From positions 1 to 63,906 of the forward strand of contig CAMZLY010000081.1 in the NCBI GenBank assembly GCA_947311825.1: a DNA stretch of 63,906 nt. Reading direction: 5' to 3'. The notes beneath the pieces are model-generated. The model had not been told where the DNA came from. It searched no databases and saw only the letters and a program-made list of their open reading frames with translations. The stretch is from an uncultured bacterium. Its GTDB lineage: Bacteria; Verrucomicrobiota; Kiritimatiellia; UBA8416; CAMZLY01. A program made the translations under genes and the position numbers. Of the stretch, positions 4,262 to 58,536 are shown piece by piece (the stretch's first letter is position 1; the number at the start of each line of letters is the position of its first letter).

Positions 4262-4681
4262 TCAAGTATCATCACCAACTATTTCAATAGCCCGTTCCAT
4301 AATCATCATTGCATTCTCGCATGCCAGTTCAGCATCTGCCAATACGAATGTTGTACCTGGAGTCAAGTCGGGCAGCCCATTTGGATAACGAGCAGGAATA
4401 TAGTAACGATCAAGAGCCGCAGCTCTTTCCACCAAAACATCAAACTTGTCCCTAATATTCTTTTCAGGAATGTCGCATATCAATTTCTGAATACTATGTC
4501 CCCATGAATCTACATCCAATTCAAATAAAACAGACTTCAACGATTTTTCCGCAGCCTGCTGAGCAATAAAACAACTATGAGAATACATTCCCTGTCCCTT
4601 TAGCAATATTGCCGCAGAAAAATCTTCTTGAGCAGTTGTAAACCACCGAACCGCCTCATGATGTTGTTGCTTCTTGCTCAT
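4262..4681 (-). CDS. HEPN-domain protein (putative toxin of an MNT/HEPN pair)
   Basis: 139 aa. A helical protein with GHSIQKL and LDRYYIPARYP blocks characteristic of small HEPN proteins. Overlaps the upstream nucleotidyltransferase gene by 26 nt. Confidence 0.75.
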   Translation of the reverse strand: MSKKQQHHEAVRWFTTAQEDFSAAILLKGQGMYSHSCFIAQQAAEKSLKSVLFELDVDSWGHSIQKLICDIPEKNIRDKFDVLVERAAALDRYYIPARYPNGLPDLTPGTTFVLADAELACENAMMIMERAIEIVGDDT

Positions 4682-5003
4682 AAATTACAACCCCTTCTTT
4701 TAATATATTCTTTATAAATGTCCGCATAGATAATTGTTTCATTTCACTAACGCTATAAATAAGCAAATCAACCGGATTAGTATAGAGTAATTTCGATATT
4801 TTTGCATAAATATCATCATATCTATCAAAAAAACGATTGGACGTATCCTGAACAAGCATCAAATCGATGTCACTATGCCTACTCTGATCATTCCTTGCAA
4901 AAGAGCCAAAAACAACGGCCTTAACAATTTTACACGACTCAAATAATCTACACAGTTTTTCAAACGTCTCTTGATCACATATCGAACATTGTTTTTGATT
5001 CAT
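4656..5003 (-). CDS. Minimal nucleotidyltransferase (MNT), putative antitoxin partner of the HEPN protein
   Basis: GSFARNDQSRHSDIDLML matches the GSxxRG..SDxDL pol-beta-type NTase motif. The track start at 5006 is GTG; the ATG is at 5003. Confidence 0.75.
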   Translation of the reverse strand: MNQKQCSICDQETFEKLCRLFESCKIVKAVVFGSFARNDQSRHSDIDLMLVQDTSNRFFDRYDDIYAKISKLLYTNPVDLLIYSVSEMKQLSMRTFIKNILKEGVVIYEQEATTS

Positions 5004-5038
5004 CACTATTCACTATTCACTGTTCACTATTCACTATC
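5004..5038 (-). repeat. Heptamer tandem array, 5 units (plus strand CACTATT CACTATT CACTGTT CACTATT CACTATC)
   Basis: Read directly from the sequence. It lies between the double stop of argJ (TGATGA, 5039-5044) and the ATG of the MNT gene (5003), with zero-nt spacing to that ATG. Confidence 0.9.
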
Positions 5039-9785: not shown

Positions 9786-9820
9786 AAAACTCCTTAATTA
9801 TCCAAAACAACTAAAATCCT

Positions 9821-9937
9821 GTAGCGTTCGCTCTCAGAGCGAAAAATGCTTAATCACATCTCACATCCTCGCACAAACCTTGTCGCGTTGGCTCTATGAG
9901 CCAAAACTTCCCGCAGGGAAGCTCGCCTTCAGGCGAG
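9821..9937 (-). repeat. Four-hairpin intergenic module, copy A
   Basis: Four hairpins in series: TTCGCTCTCAGAGCGAA (9827-9843), TTGGCTCTATGAGCCAA (9888-9904), CTTCCCGCAGGGAAG (9907-9921) and CTCGCCTTCAGGCGAG (9922-9937). Near-identical to 14686-14803. A further related stretch with the TCGGTTCACAGAGCCGA hairpin continues to about 10036. Confidence 0.85.
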
Positions 9938-10036
9938 TCCACAAACACAACAAACACTTCGCACATCGCACGTCGCTTTCGGTTCACAGAGCCGACACTA
10001 CATTTCACTCAATCATTCTTCACATTTGTAGCGTCC

Positions 10037-10068
10037 AACTATTCACTATTCACTATAAATTATTCACT
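10037..10068 (-). repeat. Degenerate heptamer array (CACTATT family) overlapping the stop codon of the gspM-like gene
   Basis: Plus strand reads ..AACTATT CACTATT CACTATA AATTATT CACTG. The TAA stop (rc of 10060-10062) lies inside the array. Confidence 0.7.
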
Positions 10069-11993: not shown

Positions 11994-12009
11994 ATTTTCT
12001 TCACTTTTT

Positions 12010-12076
12010 GTAGCGTTGGCTCTATGAGCCAAAAACACTTAATCTGTAACGCACGCAACTCGCACATCCATCGGCT
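12010..12076 (-). repeat. Hairpin intergenic module, short copy C
   Basis: GTAGCGTTGGCTCTATGAGCCAAAAACACTTAATC.. shares the GTAGCG + TTGGCTCTATGAGCCAA hairpin + CTTAATC layout with copies A and B. Confidence 0.75.
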
Positions 12077-12108
12077 CACTATTCACTATTCACTGTTCAC
12101 TATTCACT
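12077..12108 (-). repeat. Heptamer array (CACTATT CACTATT CACTGTT CACTATT CACTG) overlapping the gspK stop codon
   Basis: Read directly. The gspK TGA (rc of 12104-12106) lies in the last unit. Confidence 0.9.
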
Positions 12109-14643: not shown

Positions 14644-14685
14644 TGTACGTTGGCTCCTCATTCTTTTTCATCCCGTATTTTTTTT

Positions 14686-14803
14686 GTAGCGTTCGCTCTC
14701 AGAGCGAAAAATGCTTAATCTACATCTCGCATCCTCGCACAAATCTTGTAGCGTTGCCCCTATGAGCCAAAACTTCCCGCAGGGAAGCTCGCTTTCAGGC
14801 GAG
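14686..14803 (-). repeat. Four-hairpin intergenic module, copy B
   Basis: Aligns along its whole length with 9821-9937 with only a handful of differences. The same four hairpins occur in the same order. Confidence 0.85.
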
Positions 14804-14808
14804 TTCTT

Positions 14809-14843
14809 CACTATTCACTTTTCACTATTAGTTATTCACTATT
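14809..14843 (-). repeat. Heptamer array (CACTATT CACTTTT CACTATT AGTTATT CACTATT) overlapping the stop of the gspH-like gene
   Basis: Read directly. The TAA stop (rc of 14832-14834) lies inside the array. Confidence 0.8.
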
Positions 14844-41485: not shown

Positions 41486-44400
41486 TTATAACCTTTTGTT
41501 ATCCCTTATTGCTTTTTCAACCTCTTTAAGCATCACTTTTGACGTTTTATCTACAATAAAATTGCGGCCAGAACTCACCCCAACTTCAGTAATAATGCCT
41601 TTTGCTTCCTTTATATTACCAGCCTTAAAAAGTATTCTTGCCATATTAAGACGCATTTCCAACACCCTTGAATCATCATCAGGTACTAGAGCCATAGCCT
41701 TATCCATGTACTTACGAGCCAACTCAATCTCACCACTATACAAATAGACCATTGCCACAGTATCAAGAATTTCAAAGGATCCTTCACTATTTTCCAAAAG
41801 TTTATCCAAATATACACGAGCCTTATCAACTGTTGCCGGGTTCATAGCAAGATAATACACATAGTTGTTTAAAACTGATATATCTTGCGGATGTAATCTG
41901 TTTGTAGCATCAATTATACTTATTGCCTGCTTGTTTTCACCCTGCTGCCGAGCTGCTTCCGCCGCTAACATTAACGATTCTGTACGAACCTCTTTTATAT
42001 TGTTTTCTATCATCGGCTCCAAAACATCTAAAGCTCGTTTCATATCTTTATTTTTGAAATAAACAAAACCCAATGTTTCGTTCAACTGAGAACTACTGCC
42101 ACTACTACTACGCAAAAACTCTAGAGCGTTAACCATAGCACCATCAGTTTCTTTTTGTGCAACCTTAATTTGCACTATTGTTTTATAAAATATTGCCGGG
42201 TCATGTGCAAGCAAGATACTATCAAAGGCCAAATCAAGTGCTAATTGCCAATCTTTATTCTTTAATGCACAACGTAAACCCAAAACATACGGCGGCAATA
42301 CGCCATATCCATTTTTCACACCATACTCTGCCGCTACTGCGGCTGAGTCGATTAAGTTATTACGATACAATAAATCACCCGCACGCGTTATATCTCTAAC
42401 GGAATATGCAGAATTACTTACAGCCTCAACAACCATATCACCAACAGCCGCAGCAGTTTCATTACTCATACTTACCACAACATCCGCCAGCCATATACTA
42501 GAATCATTGGGACACGCAATTCTGGCGGCTTTAACAACATCTTTAGCACCCTTTGCCAGCTTGATTTGTAATCGATGCAAAAGTGGATTATGCGGCATAT
42601 ACTCAATGGCTTTCGATAAAGCCTGCTTAGCTACAGAATAATGCTCCTGCTGAATTGACAAAAGTGCCAATCGGTGCAAAGCATCACTTTTCTCATAGTC
42701 ATCTCTCCCTACGGCATCCCAGTCATCAATTTTTACATATTTCGACTCCCCGCCAGATTTATACCAAACTGCCGTTATCGCCGCTAAATTCTTTACAAAT
42801 GGACTAACTGCACCTTTCTCTACTGTTTCAAAAGCAACAGCACGATCTTTTAGTTGCTCATCAGTTAATGGTTTTGGCCAAATATCAGCAATAACACGCT
42901 CAGCCGGAGCAAAGTTTAAAAGCGTACTGTTTTCTATCCCTCTCCTGACTAACCGAGTTCCCCATACCTTACTCATCTTGTCAGCTTCTTTAAAACGCCC
43001 CGTATCATATAACAGTTGCGGCGATATTGCCGCCGAATTGAGAAGCCCCGCCTGATCCAACACAAAGAAAGCGTCTTCGGGAAAGCCAAACATATTCCAG
43101 AGAGCAACTTTTGATAAAGCAAGTTGCGGGGCACCAGAGAATATTCCTTCTGCATCCCGAATCAACTGCATCGCTGAAATACCCATATCTAAATGTATCA
43201 TTGCATTTATATTCTGCAAAACCGCATTAAGAGTGATTTCACCAGCAACCAGATTATATTGGCGTAGCGTCTCATATACCTTCCCCCAGCGCTTTTCCTC
43301 TGTATATAATGTGGCTTGACGCAACAATAAATCACGCTTCTGCTCTGGATATTGTACCAATAAAGCCGCCAACATCTTATGGGCTTCAGCGTACTCACCA
43401 TCAAGAGCCAAAACAAATGGATACATAATCTGCATACGATAACTCAACAAACCAGATTCACTTCTTTTTTTTAGTTCACCAAGACATTTAATCAAACTTG
43501 CCGCACGCAAATCCTCTATATCATCAACCAATAATTCTGACCTTAAAGGCACTTCAGCCAAAAATGATTTTAATGGCTCTACAGACTCTGTTAATTTACA
43601 AAACTCTCGCAAATCAAGAAGATTTTCCCGTTCATCTATCGGCACCTCAATATCTTTTCTTGAAAATCTAAACCAATTCACTCCAAACTGTACCACCGCC
43701 AACGCAAGAGCCGGATCATCAGCATCTAACTGCTGTAAATCAAGATAAGCAATCCAGCCCAAATCGGGTCGCTGCAACTTAAAACAATTCCCGAGATATT
43801 CAGCCAAAACATCTTGCGGCAATCTAGTAAGGTTGGCTTTAAAGTTCGCTGCCATCTTTTCCTCCCAGCCCGCACCTGGACGGCTAAGTGCCATCTTTGT
43901 AATATACCCCAAAAACCTCGCATCTTCAGGCCAACTTTTTAAAGCAACCCTTAATACCCGCTCCGCACCAAGTATATTTCTTTCCCGCAAATTAGCACTA
44001 ACAGCTATCAATGCCTGCGAGACCTCATCAAACGGAACGTCACTATTACAGTCAACTATTGCACCCCACTGCTCACGTGTAGCCAAATATGGGAAAAGAT
44101 TACGAACCCGCGAAGAAAGAGCCGTCCATTTAGCTGCCAATACAATATTCTTACTAACATCTTCTGCATTATCTTTACGTGCCGCATATTCAGCACGAAC
44201 AATAGCAACTCCCGGCAGACGTTTATCAGCATCAGGCAACGCATTAAGCACATCCATCGCTTCATCCATACGATCCAAGGCCATTAATGCCCAGCTTTTC
44301 CAGATCACCTCAATCAATTCTAGCTCACCATCAAGTGCATCTATTTTTACCAACACATCTTCAAATCTTTTCTGCTTCAACAGAATTCGTATCTGCTCAA

Positions 44401-45493
44401 TCCGCATCTCAGTATCGTCAGGGTCATACGCCAATACCTTCTCAATTGCACGGGCGGCAAGTTCTGGATCCCGTTCTGTCAATCCGGGAATAACATCACG
44501 AATCATCTCATTGCGATGGCTTGGCCTTGATTTAATTGCCGCAAAAACCACCACCAATATAAGCGTCATTCCCAAAACAACAAAACCACCCCTCCTGGAC
44601 ATAAAACGCCAAAACTTAGGTAATACACTACCAAGATCTGCCGGTTCAAGTTCACCGCGCAAAATCCCGCTTCTAATACGTATTCTCTTATCTGACCAAT
44701 ATTTATACAAAGACATTTCCACTTGGATAATCATAATAGATATAAAAAGAAATATACCGAGAGTATCATGCAGAAAAGTAGAAGCCCATTCCGGTGACAT
44801 TTGAGGTGCCCAATATACCATACCACTAATACGTACTACATTAAAAAACAACACTTGCACCACGCTAAATACCAAAAATGACAATAATTGCCACCACTTA
44901 AATCTTAGAAGAATACTGGTACCCAAAGTACACAACACCACCGTAACAGCCGTACGCATACCGCTACATGACTCCGGCACTCCAAACGTGGAACCATTAG
45001 TATAAAGAGCCATGCCATCAGCCCATACCCTGATATTAAACCCGTGCAATACCCATTCAGACACCTTAACCGATATCATCTGCATAATAATCTGAAAATG
45101 CCCAAAAATCTGCCCTGGCAACGGATGAACCCAATAAAGCATAAAAAGCGACAGCACAATATCTGTACCAAAACGAACAGGCAACGCCCATCGTAGGCAT
45201 GCATACAGCACAAAAATCAGGCCCAACCACTCAAACTGATGCACATGGAAAATAATACCATACAACGCCATAATAGTACCGCAACCACCAACTACCGGCA
45301 AAACCCATTCAGGTATTTTTACAACCACATCCCGTTCTTTCCAACGAAACAAAATAAATATCGCAAAAAACACTCCCAGAACAAACCGAATAAACCCCTC
45401 CTCATCTCCAGTCAGCCGCCCATAATTAGCAATACCCCAAGCCACCATCAAGAAACCGGCAGCAAACAAAACTATTTTTTTTACAAAACTCAT
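41486..45493 (-). CDS. Exosortase (EpsH/Xrt-like transpeptidase) fused to a ~1000-aa TPR/helical-repeat domain
   Basis: One uninterrupted ORF. The N-terminal ~290 aa are polytopic, with GVPESCSGMRT (Cys), FFNVVRISGM (Arg) and FLHDTLGIF (His) in exosortase order. An extra TM helix follows, then long helical repeats to the C-terminus. ATG at 45493; the track's GTG is at 45505. Confidence 0.7.
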   Translation of the reverse strand: MSFVKKIVLFAAGFLMVAWGIANYGRLTGDEEGFIRFVLGVFFAIFILFRWKERDVVVKIPEWVLPVVGGCGTIMALYGIIFHVHQFEWLGLIFVLYACLRWALPVRFGTDIVLSLFMLYWVHPLPGQIFGHFQIIMQMISVKVSEWVLHGFNIRVWADGMALYTNGSTFGVPESCSGMRTAVTVVLCTLGTSILLRFKWWQLLSFLVFSVVQVLFFNVVRISGMVYWAPQMSPEWASTFLHDTLGIFLFISIMIIQVEMSLYKYWSDKRIRIRSGILRGELEPADLGSVLPKFWRFMSRRGGFVVLGMTLILVVVFAAIKSRPSHRNEMIRDVIPGLTERDPELAARAIEKVLAYDPDDTEMRIEQIRILLKQKRFEDVLVKIDALDGELELIEVIWKSWALMALDRMDEAMDVLNALPDADKRLPGVAIVRAEYAARKDNAEDVSKNIVLAAKWTALSSRVRNLFPYLATREQWGAIVDCNSDVPFDEVSQALIAVSANLRERNILGAERVLRVALKSWPEDARFLGYITKMALSRPGAGWEEKMAANFKANLTRLPQDVLAEYLGNCFKLQRPDLGWIAYLDLQQLDADDPALALAVVQFGVNWFRFSRKDIEVPIDERENLLDLREFCKLTESVEPLKSFLAEVPLRSELLVDDIEDLRAASLIKCLGELKKRSESGLLSYRMQIMYPFVLALDGEYAEAHKMLAALLVQYPEQKRDLLLRQATLYTEEKRWGKVYETLRQYNLVAGEITLNAVLQNINAMIHLDMGISAMQLIRDAEGIFSGAPQLALSKVALWNMFGFPEDAFFVLDQAGLLNSAAISPQLLYDTGRFKEADKMSKVWGTRLVRRGIENSTLLNFAPAERVIADIWPKPLTDEQLKDRAVAFETVEKGAVSPFVKNLAAITAVWYKSGGESKYVKIDDWDAVGRDDYEKSDALHRLALLSIQQEHYSVAKQALSKAIEYMPHNPLLHRLQIKLAKGAKDVVKAARIACPNDSSIWLADVVVSMSNETAAAVGDMVVEAVSNSAYSVRDITRAGDLLYRNNLIDSAAVAAEYGVKNGYGVLPPYVLGLRCALKNKDWQLALDLAFDSILLAHDPAIFYKTIVQIKVAQKETDGAMVNALEFLRSSSGSSSQLNETLGFVYFKNKDMKRALDVLEPMIENNIKEVRTESLMLAAEAARQQGENKQAISIIDATNRLHPQDISVLNNYVYYLAMNPATVDKARVYLDKLLENSEGSFEILDTVAMVYLYSGEIELARKYMDKAMALVPDDDSRVLEMRLNMARILFKAGNIKEAKGIITEVGVSSGRNFIVDKTSKVMLKEVEKAIRDNKRL

Positions 45494-45523
45494 ATAAAGA
45501 ACCACCCCAATATATTAACAAAC

Positions 45524-47044
45524 TTAAAATTGATGGGTATAACGGAAATATGCCTCAAAAATATCACGAGTATAAACTAGATCGTCATTATCACTATCCC
45601 GAGAAACATGTGTATAATATGTGTAAAACTTGATTGTCTTTGTTACAGCAAAAGAAGATCCGATGCGCCCCATCCATGTATCGTAGTTGGATGTAGTTTC
45701 AGGATCATATAATTCATTCGGTAATAAATTAGGCTGATTCTCGCGTACCTGATAACGTAACACTCCATGCAATTCTATATACCTTGTTAGAGGGTAAGTA
45801 ACATCCAGTCGTGTAATCCAATCAGCGTAATCACTAAATATATTTCCACTCGGCACTGTTGTTCTATATTCAGAAAGCAAAGTAGCCGTAGTTGCCTCAC
45901 CATGCCATTCCAACCGATACTCAAGACTATCAACAAGCTCAAAAGCCGTACGATAACCAGTATTTATACTGCTGGAATATCCAAGCGAATGCCACACATC
46001 CTCCATCAACAACGTCTTAATACTAGCAAACCAAATAAACTGAGCAAAATTATTGCCATCAGCACCATATATATCAGAAATATTATTGGTAGATATCACC
46101 CCATCAACATTGCGAATCTGATCCCCCGCACGTATCTCACCATTAACTCCAGCAGAATACCCTATACCTATTGATGCCGTTGTATAATCACTCATCTTGA
46201 TGTGTAATCCATTATCATCACCAAGCCCATCATTATATCTAGCAAAAAGATAAAACGACTGATAACTATTATCAGGTCTATAATCAACCTTATAAGTTGT
46301 CTGATTAAAGCTATAATTGCCACCAACGGATATATTGCCGATCACACGTTGTGAATACTCCAACATCTGTTCATACGTAATACGTTCCTGATCGTCAAAT
46401 CCGTCACTAAAAGGAATAACATCTTGGCGACTTACATCAAATCGAAACTTCTTACCCCGTGCAAAATTCCAGTCAAGATATGTACCAATAGTATTATCAA
46501 TATACTCATACCGTTCACCACCATAACGGTCTGCATTTCCACGCGTATCAAAATAATCAGTGCGATACTTAAATCGATCATATAACGTACCGGTAAGCAC
46601 TGGTGTTATCCGGTAATTCAAAGTAATCGTTCCTAATACTCCCTCCTCCGGCATATCAAAATAAAACCCGCCCTCCTGCGTATCTAACGGATAATACTCA
46701 TAACTCATCCAGAACGAAATATCCAAATCCATCTTCCTTGTTATCAAAACATAATTCCTGAACGACAAAGTTGAAATCAACGGAAAATCTGAACCATCTT
46801 TTCTGATCTCACCACGCCGATTATTATAAAGATAATCGGTGCCTTTACCGGAACTCCCGGTCCACCTATATCCAAACTGTTGCGTAAATGCTACCGTTGA
46901 ATAAAATGGGCCAATCCGTAAAGTAGCATAATCAGGAATATTAACATCACGAGTATTATCAAAAGTTATTGCCTGCCCAAACAACATCCCCGCAAAAAAC
47001 AAATACGCCACAATAACAACTATTATGTTTTTATATATTCTCAA
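45524..47044 (-). CDS. Outer-membrane beta-barrel protein of unknown function
   Basis: 506 aa. Signal peptide (RIYKNIIVVIVAYLFFAGMLFGQ), alternating aromatic beta-strand pattern rich in Y/R/D/N/G, and a terminal ...FRYTHQF (C-terminal Phe). TTG start. Confidence 0.6.
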   Translation of the reverse strand: MRIYKNIIVVIVAYLFFAGMLFGQAITFDNTRDVNIPDYATLRIGPFYSTVAFTQQFGYRWTGSSGKGTDYLYNNRRGEIRKDGSDFPLISTLSFRNYVLITRKMDLDISFWMSYEYYPLDTQEGGFYFDMPEEGVLGTITLNYRITPVLTGTLYDRFKYRTDYFDTRGNADRYGGERYEYIDNTIGTYLDWNFARGKKFRFDVSRQDVIPFSDGFDDQERITYEQMLEYSQRVIGNISVGGNYSFNQTTYKVDYRPDNSYQSFYLFARYNDGLGDDNGLHIKMSDYTTASIGIGYSAGVNGEIRAGDQIRNVDGVISTNNISDIYGADGNNFAQFIWFASIKTLLMEDVWHSLGYSSSINTGYRTAFELVDSLEYRLEWHGEATTATLLSEYRTTVPSGNIFSDYADWITRLDVTYPLTRYIELHGVLRYQVRENQPNLLPNELYDPETTSNYDTWMGRIGSSFAVTKTIKFYTYYTHVSRDSDNDDLVYTRDIFEAYFRYTHQF

Positions 47045-47147: not shown

Positions 47148-48767
47148 CTATTTCCGTAAAAAAACTTCAAGCCGCGTTCCGGCCTGTCCAAAACTATCTA
47201 CAGCATAACACAACTCATAATTTCGTTCTAAAATCTCCCATAAAACAACCTGTTCTTGCACCGGTAACTCAGCAACTTCAGGACAGCCAATTGCAAAACC
47301 ATAACCACTAAAAGCAGCTACCGGAGCAGAAGCCTTCTCCAATAATTCAATTAATGACGTTCTATTAAGCACATGACAAGCATCAGCCTTCTCTCGTGAC
47401 CAATTCGGAAAATAACTGAAAGGCCCCAGCTCCAAGCCATACGGAACCCGTGCTCCAGTTTCAACTGCCAAATAAATATCCTGCGTCAAAAGCAAATCAT
47501 TCGGGCCCAACTCTTTTCTGATTTCAGCGGCAGTCTCACGCAATATTGCCAATGAACTTTTTTCCTTAAAAGGCCACCATATTCTATCTCGGTCTCCAAT
47601 AAACCAGCCCTGAATCATAGGTGATGCAAACGCCGCCGCCATATTAAGAATAAAAACAATCAGTAATAACACCACTAAAGGCGAATATTTTGATCCTTCT
47701 GTTAAAACAGTAAAACTTGATAACAATCTAATAATAAATATAGACAGAAAAACAGCCAACAAAGGAAATATCATAACCTGATAATCATCATACGGAAAAG
47801 CCGCAACAAAATGTAATAGTGTAACAGCCGCAATAGCTACACAAAGAGACATATACAATGGAGACCATGCCTGACCTCGTTTTTTTGTTAGCCAAGTAAC
47901 AACCCCACCGACAAGTAAGCCTCCCAATGCAACAAAATAAACATTAAATAGCCGAGCAACAAACCCGGCCTTATAAGCCAAAATCTTAAATAACCCTCCC
48001 GCTTCACGTCCTGCATGATATTCAACAAGCCCAAACAACGTGGCCTCCGGTGCTTTTATCAAAAACGGCAAAAAAACCAATAACCCCGTCAATAACGCAC
48101 CAGCGGCAACCCACACAGCCGTTTTGAGATGAGAAGCATCACCCTTACCACGTAAAACATAAATAATATATACCAGTAAAACTGCCGGAATAACAGCAAT
48201 TGCCGAAAGACGCGTAGCAACAGCAAGTGACATAAACACACCAGAGATAAAAGCCGGCAGATAACCACGCTTTCCTTTACAAAAACTCAAAGCCAGAAAA
48301 CTACACACCAACAACAATCCAGCAAGAGCATAAGTTTTTACAATAACAAAGAAATAAGATTGATAAACATTTATCCCGATAAAAACAAATGTCATCAATG
48401 CCGCTACCCCCGCAACCTCCTTGGTCTCTTTTTGTTTTTCTGAGTTTAATACCATCATGCGATAAGCAAGCCAAGCCGCACCAATAGTGCAAAGCAAGCC
48501 CAAAACCGCCGTAAATATTCTCCCCCCCAACACACCAAAAGCATCAACCAATGGCCAGGCAATAGCATAAACAAACGCCATAATCGGCCCCTGCGTACTC
48601 GCAAAATCAATAAATGGCAACTGTCCCTCCGCCACCATCCTTCCAGAATAAAGATACCAGCCCTCATCCTGATTAAGCTCACCAAACCAAATATTAGCCG
48701 TAGCAAGCACCAAAGTTGCAACAACCACAACAGGCCAAAGAATCTCCAATAAACGTTTTATACTCAT
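47148..48767 (-). CDS. GT-C fold glycosyltransferase (ArnT/PMT-like, polyprenyl-phosphate-sugar dependent)
   Basis: 539 aa. More than 10 TM helices in the N-terminal two-thirds, an early acidic loop motif (GELNQDEGWY), and a soluble C-terminal domain. This architecture is typical of GT39/GT83-type enzymes. Confidence 0.65.
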   Translation of the reverse strand: MSIKRLLEILWPVVVVATLVLATANIWFGELNQDEGWYLYSGRMVAEGQLPFIDFASTQGPIMAFVYAIAWPLVDAFGVLGGRIFTAVLGLLCTIGAAWLAYRMMVLNSEKQKETKEVAGVAALMTFVFIGINVYQSYFFVIVKTYALAGLLLVCSFLALSFCKGKRGYLPAFISGVFMSLAVATRLSAIAVIPAVLLVYIIYVLRGKGDASHLKTAVWVAAGALLTGLLVFLPFLIKAPEATLFGLVEYHAGREAGGLFKILAYKAGFVARLFNVYFVALGGLLVGGVVTWLTKKRGQAWSPLYMSLCVAIAAVTLLHFVAAFPYDDYQVMIFPLLAVFLSIFIIRLLSSFTVLTEGSKYSPLVVLLLIVFILNMAAAFASPMIQGWFIGDRDRIWWPFKEKSSLAILRETAAEIRKELGPNDLLLTQDIYLAVETGARVPYGLELGPFSYFPNWSREKADACHVLNRTSLIELLEKASAPVAAFSGYGFAIGCPEVAELPVQEQVVLWEILERNYELCYAVDSFGQAGTRLEVFLRK

Positions 48768-48768
48768 C

Positions 48769-48845
48769 CACTATTCACTATTCACTATTCACTATCCACT
48801 ATCCACTATTCACTATCCACTATCCACTATCCACTATTCACTATT
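48769..48845 (-). repeat. Heptamer tandem array, 11 complete units of CACTATT / CACTATC
   Basis: Counted unit by unit. The pyrE TGA (rc of 48845-48847) lies at the junction of the last full unit and the following partial unit. The ATG of the GT-C gene (48767) is 1 nt from the other end. Confidence 0.95.
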
Positions 48846-49438
48846 CACGATCCCGGATGAACAAGCGGCAATTTTTGTTTACAAAGCGGACATTCATCCG
48901 GTGCCCATGTTATCGGCTCCATCTCTAATAAACTAAAAGTCGGATAGCCAAAATCAACTTTTCCACCACTTCTATTTACCAACAACGCCACAGCGACAAC
49001 TTCGCCGCCAGCATTCTTAACAATATCAATAGTCTCCTGCACACGCCCGCCACGAGTAACCACATCTTCAGCTACCACAATCTTTTCACCAGGATTTATT
49101 TTAAAGCGACGTAAATACAACTTATCATCCTGCTTTTCAGCAAAAATAGACTTCACCCCGATCTCACGAGCAACTTCATGCCCTACGACTATACCACCCA
49201 ATGCAGGTGCAATCACAGTATCAACAGCACCCAAGACCCCGGCAATAGTCATTTTTTCAACCAAGGCCTCACAACATTGTTGTGCATAAATAGGATAGCT
49301 CAACAAATTTGCACACTGAAAAAAACGATCACTATGCAACCCAGACCTCAATTCAAAATGCCCCTCAAGCAATGCATCAGTATTTTTCAGTATCTCAACG
49401 ACTTCTTCCGGTTTCATCATATTTGTCAAATCTTTCAT
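48845..49438 (-). CDS. pyrE: Orotate phosphoribosyltransferase
   Basis: 197 aa. PRPP-binding motif KIVVAEDVVTRGG and the N-terminal FELRSGLHSDRFFQ. Confidence 0.9.
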   Translation of the reverse strand: MKDLTNMMKPEEVVEILKNTDALLEGHFELRSGLHSDRFFQCANLLSYPIYAQQCCEALVEKMTIAGVLGAVDTVIAPALGGIVVGHEVAREIGVKSIFAEKQDDKLYLRRFKINPGEKIVVAEDVVTRGGRVQETIDIVKNAGGEVVAVALLVNRSGGKVDFGYPTFSLLEMEPITWAPDECPLCKQKLPLVHPGS

Positions 49439-52724: not shown

Positions 52725-52878
52725 ATAATCACCTTTATTAGTTTTAAAGTATCTACCTATCATCATTACGTTCGCTCAGACCTCTTGTGCTCCACTGAAC
52801 ATCAATTCGATAAGAGGATACTCATCATCCGAAGTGACATCAAGTAAAAAGCAATATCACCGCAACTGATAATTGCCA

Positions 52879-52913
52879 ACTGATAACTGATAACTGATAA
52901 CTAATAACTGTTA
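52879..52913. repeat. Second heptamer tandem array: ACTGATA x3, then ACTAATA and ACTGTTA (plus a detached ACTGATA at 52865-52871)
   Basis: Read directly. It lies in the divergent intergenic region between the HIT gene and the second sugar transferase, about 50 nt upstream of the ATG at 52964. Confidence 0.9.
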
Positions 52914-52963: not shown

Positions 52964-54376
52964 ATGAAAACAAACGATACATCTGATGCACTACTAAGTG
53001 CCTTGTCCATATTTTGCGATGCACTTGCCGTTTACGGTAGCTTAATACTGGCCACCTGGATTCGATTTGGCTCAGGGATAATCCCCATTATAAATAATCC
53101 GCAACCAGATTTCTATAAAGTATATGCACAAGGCGCAATATTTGCCACAATTATATTTATTCTGGCTTTTCGTAACCTGGGTCTCTATATACGCCCACAA
53201 ACAGGATCATTTATTGATAAAATACCCAGGATTATAAAAGGCTGTACAACCGGTATGATCATAACCTTTATGCTGGCTTTTGCCGTAATTCACATTGCCG
53301 ACTTCTCAAGAATAACAATATTAATATCAATGTTTATAGCTGGATTCTTTGTTATTATAGAACGCTATGCCCTTTACAGACTCGAATGGAATATTGCACG
53401 ACACAGCAAAACCAGAAACAACATACTCATTCTAGGGACCGACTCATCCGCCGCACACCTAACAGATACACTTCAACAGGAAACCATGCTAAAAGCAAAT
53501 GTCATAGGATTCATGCAAACTGACGTATCTACACCCGATCCTAAAATTCCTACCAATAAAATCATAGGAAATATAGGAACTCTCAGTGACTTCCTAAAAA
53601 CTAATGAAGTTAATCAAATAATCCTAACCAACTCCAACCTTGGTCATGACAAAATAGTTGAAATAATATTACTTTGCGAACAAAACCTCATCACGTTTAA
53701 TATGATTCTCGATTTATTCCGCGTACTTACCAGCAGTATGGACGTGCAATCATTAAACGATATTCCTCTATTAGGAATAAGTAAATGGCCACTTGACTAC
53801 TTTTGGAAAAGAATGCTCAAACGTGCAGAAGATGTCATTGGTGCTTGCATTGCATTATTACTAAGTTCGCCCATAATTCTAATCGCAGCAATTCTCATCA
53901 AAAAATCCTCACCGGGTCCAGTGCTCTACAAACAGGAACGATGCGGAGAAAACGGAAAATCTTTTAACTTATATAAACTACGCACCATGAAAATCAATGC
54001 CGAACAACAATCAGGCCCCGTCTTTACTGCCGAAGATGACCCACGAACAACCAAAATAGGAGCATTTCTACGACGCAACAATCTTGACGAGTTACCACAA
54101 CTATGGAATGTAATTAAAGGAGAAATGAGCATGGTAGGACCACGCCCAGAACGTCCACACTTCGTCGAAAAATTTAAAACTGATATGACAAAATATATGT
54201 GGCGACACGTTTCTAAACCCGGCATGACCGGCTGGGCACAGGTAAATGGCCTGCGCGGCAACACAAGTATTGAAGAACGTATCAAATATGACTTATACTA
54301 TCTTGAAAACTGGTCATTGGCCTTTGATTTTAAAATATTAACAAAAACAATATTTGCAAATAAAAATGCATATTAA
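52964..54376 (+). CDS. Undecaprenyl-phosphate hexose-1-phosphate transferase (WcaJ/WbaP-like bacterial sugar transferase)
   Basis: 470 aa. The same architecture and catalytic blocks as 36513-37934 (YKLRTM, DELPQLWNVIKGEMSMVGPRPE, KYDLYYLENWS). Confidence 0.85.
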   Translation: MKTNDTSDALLSALSIFCDALAVYGSLILATWIRFGSGIIPIINNPQPDFYKVYAQGAIFATIIFILAFRNLGLYIRPQTGSFIDKIPRIIKGCTTGMIITFMLAFAVIHIADFSRITILISMFIAGFFVIIERYALYRLEWNIARHSKTRNNILILGTDSSAAHLTDTLQQETMLKANVIGFMQTDVSTPDPKIPTNKIIGNIGTLSDFLKTNEVNQIILTNSNLGHDKIVEIILLCEQNLITFNMILDLFRVLTSSMDVQSLNDIPLLGISKWPLDYFWKRMLKRAEDVIGACIALLLSSPIILIAAILIKKSSPGPVLYKQERCGENGKSFNLYKLRTMKINAEQQSGPVFTAEDDPRTTKIGAFLRRNNLDELPQLWNVIKGEMSMVGPRPERPHFVEKFKTDMTKYMWRHVSKPGMTGWAQVNGLRGNTSIEERIKYDLYYLENWSLAFDFKILTKTIFANKNAY

Positions 54377-54892: not shown

Positions 54893-55041
54893 ATAAATAC
54901 TCACTTATTAGAACTCAATTCTCACTATTAAGTTTCAATGCCAGAACAAAAAAAACTTTTTCAAGTTCTCATACTCTTTATCCATTTTAATTTTTTATCT
55001 AATATCCCCTCCATCATATCCGTTTATTTAATAACAGGCTC

Positions 55042-58461: not shown

Positions 58462-58536
58462 TGGCACGCCCACGGGGAATCGAACCCCGCTTACCAGGAT
58501 GAAAACCTGGTGTCCTATCCGATAGACGATGGGCGT
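58462..58536 (-). tRNA. tRNA-Glu (anticodon UUC), CCA encoded
   Basis: The rc reads ACGCCCA TC GTCT ATCGGATA GGAC A CCAGG TTTTCAT CCTGG TAAG CGGGG TTCGATT CCCCG TGGGCGT G CCA. All four stems pair, a T-loop TTCGA is present, and the anticodon loop is TT-TTC-AT. Confidence 0.9.

Follow-up and report, generated by a model that had tools for sequence, protein, structure and literature searches.

What is a perfect run of eleven heptamers doing between two genes that are read in the same direction, and is it a control element of the operon it precedes? The locus in question lies on contig CAMZLY010000081.1 (GenBank assembly GCA_947311825.1) of an uncultured bacterium from the Kiritimatiellia, whose positions 1 to 63,906 were analyzed as a whole and are referred to as the window. 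On the minus strand of the window, the orotate phosphoribosyltransferase gene pyrE is followed by a gene for a membrane protein of GT-C glycosyltransferase fold (GT-C gene), the first of an exosortase/exopolysaccharide (EPS) gene string. Between both genes, at positions 48769-48845, we find a heptanucleotide array of eleven units, each reading RATAGTG (i.e., AATAGTG or GATAGTG) in the sense of the genes. A preliminary description of this array had regarded it as prone to slippage and had suggested it as a multi-site platform for a DNA- or RNA-binding factor controlling the EPS operon. According to our analysis, the tract is a described but functionally unexplained kind of repeat and no dedicated switch of the EPS operon. 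On balance, we lean towards a slippage-driven heptanucleotide repeat of the TAACTGA or long simple sequence repeat (LSSR) kind, i.e., a (RATAGTG)n = (TGAATAG)n family in operon spacers, which probably acts as a tunable intercistronic linker. Heptanucleotide arrays as such (STRR, LSSR, TAACTGA) were known before; new here are the unit RATAGTG and its anchoring at stop codons.

Direct reading of the plus strand and its splitting into units gives (CACTATY)11 for positions 48769-48845, with all units perfect and a copy number taken from a single metagenome contig. The order of units on the plus strand is three CACTATT, two CACTATC, one CACTATT, three CACTATC and two CACTATT, which reads in gene sense as two AATAGTG, three GATAGTG, one AATAGTG, two GATAGTG and three AATAGTG. 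Tandem Repeats Finder reports the range 48769-48848 with period 7, 11.4 copies, 94% matches and a score of 125, which makes the array by a wide margin the top-scoring tandem repeat of the window. A degenerate twelfth unit at 48846-48852 (CACGATC on the plus strand, GATCGTG in the minus-strand sense) codes for the last pyrE codons. Eleven perfect tandem copies cannot be due to chance. That is, the eleven perfect units and the degenerate one follow each other head to tail and free of spacers over a length beyond chance, as is characteristic for a heptanucleotide LSSR.

The array also fits its neighbors to the nucleotide. The pyrE stop codon TGA (48847-48845) is composed of the final base of the last full plus-strand unit and two bases of the degenerate unit, and the ATG of the GT-C gene (48767-48765) is separated from the array by 1 nt, such that the 77-nt spacer is the repeat plus one G and the array fills the entire junction between pyrE and the operon. 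In gene sense, its 77 nt have the composition A28 C0 G27 T22, contain no ATG, and carry eleven TAG and five TGA stop codons distributed across the three frames. The opposite strand is free of stops, since CACTATY is stop-free in every frame, and for this reason alone an antisense open reading frame (ORF) of 70 aa with a HYSLFTI-type repeat exists at 48716-48928 on the plus strand. It overlaps both flanking genes, and we reject a coding role for this mechanical product of the stop-free unit strand. None of the motifs GGAG, GAGG and AGGA is present upstream of the GT-C ATG, i.e., a canonical Shine-Dalgarno sequence is missing. The preliminary description had reported the complete coverage of the junction, the stops rotating through all frames in gene sense, the artefactual nature of the antisense ORF and the missing Shine-Dalgarno sequence, and all its factual statements agree with our direct reading, unit splitting and ORF coordinates.

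The same unit at other junctions and in related genomes

The unit is not confined to the EPS region. Within the whole window, the hexamer CACTAT is found 60 times on the plus strand versus 6 times on the minus strand, and besides the 11-unit tract there are four further arrays of the same unit, each with CACTATY on the plus strand and located between co-directional minus-strand ORFs. Each of the window's arrays overlaps or directly follows the stop codon of its upstream ORF. The array at 5004-5038 (minus strand), composed of the five units GATAGTG, AATAGTG, AACAGTG and twice AATAGTG, separates argJ from the gene of an MntA-like nucleotidyltransferase. It starts 3 nt past the argJ stop, with a second in-frame TGA in between, and reaches the MntA-like ATG with a gap of 0 nt; the junction thus reads TGA-TGA-(5 units)-ATG and forms a stop-to-start bridge as does the pyrE array. 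The remaining three, again in minus-strand sense, belong to type II secretion junctions: three to four units at 10037-10057 overlap the stop of a 177-aa ORF upstream of the secretin gene, four to five units at 12077-12104 overlap the stop of a GspK-like ORF upstream of a PilM/N-like gene, and three units at 14809-14829, extended by degenerate units to 14843, overlap the stop of a GspH-like pseudopilin gene at its junction with a further pseudopilin gene. The downstream start is reached by two of the five arrays, and the other three end 60-270 nt short of it. Outside of arrays, single copies of the heptamer show no enrichment (about 22 observed versus about 17 expected from base composition). 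With five sets in 64 kb, and more on the contigs of relatives, the same unit recurs many times per genome.

These observations give no support to the idea of a platform dedicated to the EPS operon, since the same unit occurs in the same orientation at the argJ|mntA junction and at the three type II secretion junctions as well as at arg and type II secretion junctions of relatives. Given these positions, RATAGTG arrays constitute a stop-anchored genome-wide family and not an EPS-specific element.

Orthologous junctions were retrieved via homologous proteins. Homologues of the GT-C protein (P0002, P0003 and P0007, 75-84% identity) gave the loci L121-L124 from three to four assemblies, and ArgJ homologues (74-84% identity) gave L125-L131. 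The gene order pyrE, GT-C gene, 506-aa protein gene, exosortase gene is the same on four relatives' contigs. With regard to the pyrE-GT-C spacer itself, L121-L124 show 44-59 nt of unique sequence and no heptamer array (0 versus 11 units). In L121-L123, the spacer ends with GAGGA(A/G)TG-ATG and thus with a clear Shine-Dalgarno sequence; in L124, the called start is TTG and GAGGA is missing upstream of it. The C-terminus of PyrE (...VHPGS-stop) is common to the window and the relatives, which implies that the window's array begins exactly at the native pyrE stop. As judged from this comparison, the 11-unit array is a derived, lineage-specific expansion that has replaced the whole ancestral spacer including its ribosome binding site.

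The argJ junction provides a second series of the same kind. Relatives with about 82-84% protein identity have the unit at orthologous junctions in varying copy numbers. In the window and the L125-L131 loci, we count 5, 3, 5, 0, about 1, 0 and 0 units after argJ, where the zeros stem from L130, L128 and L126 and the single unit from L131. The contig of L125 is syntenic with the window across the secretion operon, rplM-rpsI and the arg genes and shows arrays of the same unit at orthologous junctions. Its three units after argJ (21 nt) exactly fill the space between TAA and ATG, the junction of the 177-aa ORF with the secretin gene has four to five units that overlap the stop (versus three to four in the window), and three units are found at gspK|pilM (versus four to five), where a TAACTGA-like array additionally abuts the pilM ATG. 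Further arrays of L125 belong to the junctions argB|argD and argD|argG, the latter array with 5 units that overlap the stop. In L129, five units directly follow the argJ stop and the next gene is argB, not the toxin-antitoxin module found at this place in the window. L129 and L121 come from the same assembly (GCA_029940435.1), i.e., this genome lacks the pyrE array and has an argJ array of 5 units.

A uniform scan of the window and L121-L131 found all arrays of at least three units (9 of 9) on the gene-sense strand, which is the G-rich one as well. Assuming uniform placement, the observed position at the stop has a joint p-value of about 9e-7 for the five independent junctions whose spacer is longer than the array. 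Related genomes differ by whole units at both the argJ and the pyrE junctions, which agrees with the earlier expectation that the repeat is labile in 7-nt steps: orthologous copy numbers differ, and L121-L124 have no pyrE array at all. Taken at the level of sequence comparison, it is shown that RATAGTG arrays are lineage-wide, that they are tied to the gene before them at its 3' end, and that single arrays are gained, lost and resized in whole units. We also looked for a second copy of the locus from the same species with a 20-mer from the GT-C gene start; this metagenome scan returned five unrelated loci without a tblastn match. A look-up of the exact PyrE protein gave no record, and the cluster of the GT-C protein has a single member on one contig, such that the collections contain no contig of the same species.

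The gene reached by the argJ array is part of an MntA-like nucleotidyltransferase and HEPN (HepT-like) toxin-antitoxin pair at 4262-5003 (minus strand), inserted between argJ and argB. This module is found in the window and in L125, is decayed to a HEPN fragment in L130, and is absent from L129, L131 and L126. The heptamer array remains at the argJ stop with or without it.

Signals, strand composition and neighboring genes

Since the array RNA has no C, its self-pairing is limited to A-U and G-U pairs. Folding of the junction RNA revealed no significant structure compared to shuffled sequences (z = 0.51 for sense, 0.19 for antisense). The signal scan found neither a sigma-70-like promoter nor an intrinsic-terminator-like site in the junction on either strand, and a search against Rfam gave nothing credible for positions 48600-49000, such that we rejected a terminator, promoter or known RNA at this place. 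The C-free sense RNA that folds no better than shuffles likewise does not correspond to an intrinsic terminator or to a hairpin of the REP, BIME or MITE type. The window's sole Rfam match above the gathering threshold is a tRNA gene (RF00005, 55 bits) at 58465-58536 on the minus strand, situated between two plus-strand genes. A Shine-Dalgarno-like GGAG, GAGG or AGGA is found upstream of about 22 of the 56 ORF starts in the window. Its absence at the GT-C gene is therefore not exceptional for this genome, although the orthologue of the relatives has one.

The strand bias of the arrays coincides with the base composition of the window. Third-position GC skew, computed for each gene in its own sense, amounts to +0.55 in the genes of the minus strand and to -0.33 in those of the plus strand; intergenic DNA shows the same sign. 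The plus strand contains 15750 C versus 9548 G, and about three quarters of the coding bases belong to the G-rich strand. Such an asymmetry is of the replication type, the minus strand being the leading, G-rich one, and the G-containing, C-free orientation of the arrays agrees with it. All arrays of the lineage sit in leading-strand operons, for which reason their orientation to transcription cannot be separated here from that to replication.

Some further short repeats are found in the window. A degenerate mini-array at 54893-54935 (plus strand; CTCACTT, ATTAGAA, CTCAATT, CTCACTATT) follows directly on the stop of a gene on the plus strand. Its chromosomal orientation is that of the other arrays and thus antisense to its own operon, which hints weakly at an orientation set by the replication strand. 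In the long spacer upstream of the secretin gene, degenerate period-7 runs ending with GTG are found in minus-strand sense at 9955-9976 and 9850-9870 (CGACGTG, CGATGTG, CGAAGTG; GCGAGGATGTGAGATGTG), suggesting a broader NNNNGTG heptamer habit in the spacers of this genome. The type II secretion spacers further hold a hairpin-rich repeated element of about 120-140 nt (minus-strand sense), of which there are two copies with 94% identity (9805-9945 and 14685-14804) and one fragment (12008-12044), all downstream of heptamer arrays. Its hairpins include CTCGCC-TGAA-GGCGAG, CTTCCC-TGC-GGGAAG, TTGGCTC-ATA-GAGCCAA and CGCTC-TGA-GAGCG; similar hairpins (GGCTCTGAGAGCCAACGCTAC) occur in the relative L128. 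The element has no match in Rfam and looks REP/MITE-like.

With regard to the flanking genes, pyrE (48845-49438, minus strand, 197 aa) is identified by TIGR01367 with 194 bits versus a cut-off of 150.25. The gene after the array (47148-48767, minus strand) encodes a polytopic membrane protein of 539 aa for which sequence searches of Pfam, NCBIfam and PDB found no match. Its AlphaFold model, built on 44 homologues, has a pLDDT of 92.8, and in structure comparison it resembles ArnT (TM 0.61-0.63, E 3e-9) as well as the oligosaccharyltransferases AglB, PglB and STT3, along with ALG9/ALG12 and AftA. On this model, the protein is a predicted GT-C fold glycosyltransferase, i.e., the GT-C label given to it before is upheld at the level of the fold. 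The genes that follow encode, in order, a 506-aa protein, a 1339-aa exosortase-TPR fusion, a Wza-like exporter and a Wzz/kinase, and labeling them as an EPS/exosortase operon seems fair from this content. The 506-aa protein (45524-47044, minus strand) has no Pfam or NCBIfam match, and its position between the GT-C gene and the exosortase gene is kept in all relatives. The fusion protein (41486-45505, minus strand) combines an exosortase domain of EpsH type with a very long TPR-rich C-terminal region, an architecture kept in the relatives at 1331-1342 aa. For both the GT-C protein and ArgJ, the named homologues (45-65% identity) belong to Lentisphaerae, Kiritimatiellae and Verrucomicrobia, by which the host lineage is classified as a PVC-group bacterium.

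The unit in other phyla and known heptamer systems

To place the unit in a wider context, we consider a scan of species-representative genomes for (CACTATY)4, which gave at least 120 stretches that match the window repeat-to-repeat only. For such a 28-mer, our arithmetic yields a chance expectation of about 3e-4 occurrences. Among the matches listed, to which all counts of this paragraph refer, the hosts are Chamaesiphon and other cyanobacteria (including Nostocaceae and Snowella), Caldilineaceae, Bacteroidota, Acidobacteriota, PVC bacteria, Campylobacterota, Methylomicrobium/Methylotuvimicrobium, Thiotrichaceae, Patescibacteria and others. Period-7 repeats are the dominant class at these loci (240 of about 430 tandem-repeat rows), and AATAGTG arrays are often adjoined by arrays of other heptamers. 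In a crude ORF-based census, orientation between co-directional ORFs is not significantly biased (25 sense versus 21 antisense), and convergent spacers hold arrays more often than divergent ones (23 versus 7, p = 0.005). In the antisense cases L001, L018, L033 and L066, a real ATG follows the array, which reads CACTATY in the sense of the gene, at a distance of 7-11 nt. The RATAGTG strand is locally G-rich in 86 loci versus 33 (p about 1e-6), an association that is confounded with gene orientation. A random orientation relative to genes, which the preliminary description had named as evidence against its reading, is thus roughly what is seen across bacteria, but within the lineage the orientation is uniform (9/9 arrays).

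In the viral contigs of IMG/VR, we found 18 stretches of (AATAGTG)4 and 32 of (TAACTGA)4; four shuffles of the same composition gave 4, 7, 3 and 3. That is, AATAGTG occurs about four times as often as its shuffles, with a Poisson p(>=18 | mean 4.25) of about 6e-7 that relates to four controls. The unit is moderately favored over same-composition units, four controls being few. A literature search for AATAGTG, GATAGTG or CACTATT repeats in bacteria found nothing relevant.

Two observations concern individual loci of the scan. Methylotuvimicrobium buryatense 5G (L004) and Methylomicrobium sp. wino1 (L015) have homologous flanks around 10 versus 5 AATAGTG units. In both, as well as in L033 and L081, (AATAGTG)n is located within composite spacers that contain second and third heptamer arrays, e.g., of CCTCTTT/CACCTTT, GGGGACC/GGGGACA or GCATCAC/GCATTAC.

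The window itself holds an array of a known heptamer class. At 52864-52910 (plus strand), AACTGAT is repeated 6.7 times, which is TAACTGA in another register, with the variants AACTAAT and AACTGTT. It is located in forward orientation in the divergent spacer between a HIT-family gene (minus strand) and a priming sugar transferase gene (plus strand), 54 nt upstream of the latter's ATG at 52964, and thereby at the other flank of the same EPS region as the pyrE|GT-C array. The corresponding spacer of L121 shows a different period-7 run (TGAACTN).

TAACTGA direct repeats were described as intergenic heptamers of marine Beggiatoaceae, some Cyanobacteria and Bacteroidetes (MacGregor 2015, PMC4679880). 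They are in forward orientation, often a few nt from the start codon, and have stops in the forward frames only; there are many sets per genome, no RNA structure is predicted, and the spacers are poor in ribosome binding sites (PMC4679880). Indels of 7 nt occur between related strains, and a post-transcriptional network was proposed for these repeats, the function of which is not established (PMC4679880). The pyrE|GT-C array agrees with this class in every positional and physical respect. It is intergenic and forward, ends 1 nt before an ATG without canonical ribosome binding site, has stops in all sense frames and an open reverse strand, and folds with z-scores of 0.5 and 0.2. It differs in the unit itself, which is RATAGTG, and in the PVC-group host, which is not among the phyla listed in PMC4679880. 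Furthermore, the constant rule here is the anchoring at the upstream stop, and the start codon is reached by two of the five arrays in the window.

Several other systems are related in part. According to the summary in PMC4679880, heptanucleotides are the commonest class of prokaryotic LSSRs with units of 5-11 nt, for which slippage was proposed (Mrazek et al. 2007). The array resembles them as a perfect head-to-tail, non-coding heptanucleotide tract with sporadic phylogenetic spread and a length beyond chance; in contrast, the LSSR census as summarized there is a statistical one and refers neither to this unit nor to stop anchoring or conservation at orthologous junctions. Among cyanobacterial repeats, the STRR units comprise CCCCAGT and others. 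In Nostoc PCC 7120, contiguous heptamers are located upstream of recF/recO and next to or overlapping the start codons of many genes; their deletion alters reporter output, and a binding partner was postulated (bioRxiv 10.1101/2022.06.06.494920). Contiguous heptamers next to start codons are a common trait, and (CACTATY)n itself also occurs in cyanobacteria. The Nostoc units, however, are TTTTGAA and GACYAAT in a promoter or 5' untranslated region context, compared to an intra-operon spacer of a non-cyanobacterial lineage here.

Another heptanucleotide system, and the functional analogue that has been studied best, is the hmw repeat of adhesin genes, where copy number grades expression without frame switching, the repeat lies between mapped promoters and the start, and variation within populations has been demonstrated. 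This simple sequence repeat is located upstream of hmw1A/hmw2A in H. influenzae (PMC8262952, PMC12721329). Common to both is a 7-nt repeat that comes after the upstream signals and ahead of the start codon of a gene for a surface structure, but no promoter is evident here and the array begins in the stop codon of the upstream gene. Two further analogies were dropped. TRAP-like binding to (UAG)11 does not fit sister arrays of 3-5 units and a 4-nt spacing unlike that of TRAP sites, and a polar motif of the Chi or KOPS type is at odds with single heptamers that are not enriched.

Origin, possible function and meaning

The scenario behind our favored reading, i.e., the slippage-driven linker, may be sketched as follows. 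The array would originate from replication slippage of a stop-containing heptamer, TGA-A-TAG, whose duplication directly after a stop codon would be harmless to the upstream protein, and the leading-strand excess of G over C would favor a C-free unit. The array would be transcribed within a common pyrE-GT-C message, where co-transcription is assumed from the absence of signals in between. Its RNA, unstructured, free of C and with stops in every frame, would end any translating ribosome. Rho loading sites are the very opposite of C-free RNA; the G-free and C-rich reverse orientation would be ideal for Rho, and the sense orientation should thus be a poor place for it to load. The array would then present single-stranded RNA up to the GT-C ATG, where initiation may proceed independently of a Shine-Dalgarno sequence, i.e., via a standby site, S1, re-initiation or, at most, weak pairing of GUGA with the anti-Shine-Dalgarno sequence. 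Since copy number alters neither the reading frame nor promoter spacing, its change would shift the expression of the downstream operon gradually and not switch it on and off.

Some observations weigh against this scenario. Pure neutral slippage predicts neither the maintenance of one unit consensus, which is seen at many sites, in at least three genomes of the lineage and across many phyla, nor the excess of AATAGTG in IMG/VR (18 versus 3-7 for the shuffles). Both hint that the sequence is under selection or that the arrays share a mechanism of seeding. In addition, the two orientations, to transcription and to replication, are inseparable in this lineage, and the co-transcription of pyrE and the GT-C gene is an assumption.

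Consensus and excess also speak for a rival reading, in which the arrays are selected RNA cis-elements and which we consider possible but clearly less probable. The arrays could terminate translation in all frames and provide a platform for re-initiation or standby, or offer multiple sites to a single-stranded RNA-binding protein (S1, Csp or CsrA-like), and thus set downstream translation or stability. The stop anchoring far above chance, the uniform sense orientation within the lineage and the unstructured RNA are consistent with such a role, as are the gaps of 0-1 nt to the ATG at pyrE|GT-C, argJ|mntA and the argJ junction of L125 and the loss of the Shine-Dalgarno sequence where the pyrE array sits. 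Furthermore, the stop-N-stop layout is shared by AATAGTG (TGA-A-TAG) and TAACTGA (TAA-C-TGA), and for the CsrA-like variant, the array offers five GGA plus a GGAUG at the start. On the other hand, close relatives differ at the same junction (0-5 units after argJ, 0 versus 11 after pyrE); since arrays come and go among them, no individual array is essential. Three of the five window arrays are 60-270 nt away from the next start, antisense arrays are about as frequent as sense arrays across the phyla of the matches listed, and no candidate binding protein was identified. A contingency locus, in which frequent gain and loss of units acts as a phase or rheostat switch of a surface polysaccharide after the model of hmw1A/hmw2A, is unlikely. 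Surface structures are typical targets of phase variation, a perfect repeat of 77 nt is a slippage-prone kind of tract, copy numbers differ between relatives, and further arrays are found in the EPS region (the TAACTGA type at 52864-52910 upstream of the priming sugar transferase gene) and in the type II secretion/pseudopilin operon. Unit changes, however, leave the reading frames intact, since the array is located between stop and start, there are no promoter-like hexamers within or next to it whose spacing could change, and arrays are found just as well at the arginine-biosynthesis junctions of argJ, argB and argD.

Still less credit is due to a role at the DNA level, be it a platform for a DNA-binding protein, a replication-oriented polar motif or the footprint of a mobile element that makes 7-bp duplications. 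The shared chromosomal orientation of the window's arrays, which includes the degenerate mini-array at the plus-strand gene junction (54893-54935), the association with the locally G-rich strand across phyla (among the matches listed) and the location of three window arrays next to the hairpin-rich repeated element all point in this direction. Yet, a period of 7 bp puts the sites on differing faces of the helix, single heptamers, unlike motifs of the Chi or KOPS type, show no enrichment, the arrays have no transposase or recombinase next to them, and the distance of the arrays to the hairpin element is not fixed. Finally, we hold it for very improbable that the locus is an assembly artefact, in which the metagenome contig was joined wrongly at the repeat or its copy number was collapsed or expanded. 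Since the unit is present at five or more loci, a mis-join by a de Bruijn assembler is conceivable, and the GT-C protein (P0001) is known from one contig. But the order of the pyrE, GT-C, 506-aa protein and exosortase genes is identical on four independent contigs of relatives, which shows the join to be right. Moreover, common short reads exceed the array (77-84 nt) in length, and independent assemblies show such arrays at orthologous junctions.

Beyond the single lineage, RATAGTG and TAACTGA arrays might together represent a selected, cross-phylum stop-N-stop class placed after stop codons, in which all-frame termination is followed by a Shine-Dalgarno-free handover of the terminated ribosomes or of fresh subunits to the next cistron or a conserved single-stranded RNA-binding protein is recruited, with copy number setting how strongly adjacent genes of an operon are coupled. 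We offer this as a speculation that is rather doubtful at present; if it is true, the class would be a general slippage-tunable intercistronic regulator that has not yet been described.

The 11-unit element itself is ordinary for heptamer-rich genomes, and bacterial heptanucleotide arrays (STRR, LSSR, TAACTGA) have been known for decades without an established function. What is added here is a second recurrent unit, AATAGTG/GATAGTG, found in many phyla, and a positional rule in one lineage, where arrays start at the stop codon and are read in gene sense. The pyrE junction moreover constitutes a natural experiment, i.e., one and the same operon junction with a Shine-Dalgarno spacer in relatives versus eleven units without Shine-Dalgarno sequence here, and these paired states make the effect of an array on downstream translation directly testable. 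If the arrays do nothing, they provide a measure of the junk that is tolerated at operon junctions. If they tune the coupling between cistrons, evolution would have in them a cheap dial for the stoichiometry of operons, polysaccharide and secretion genes included.

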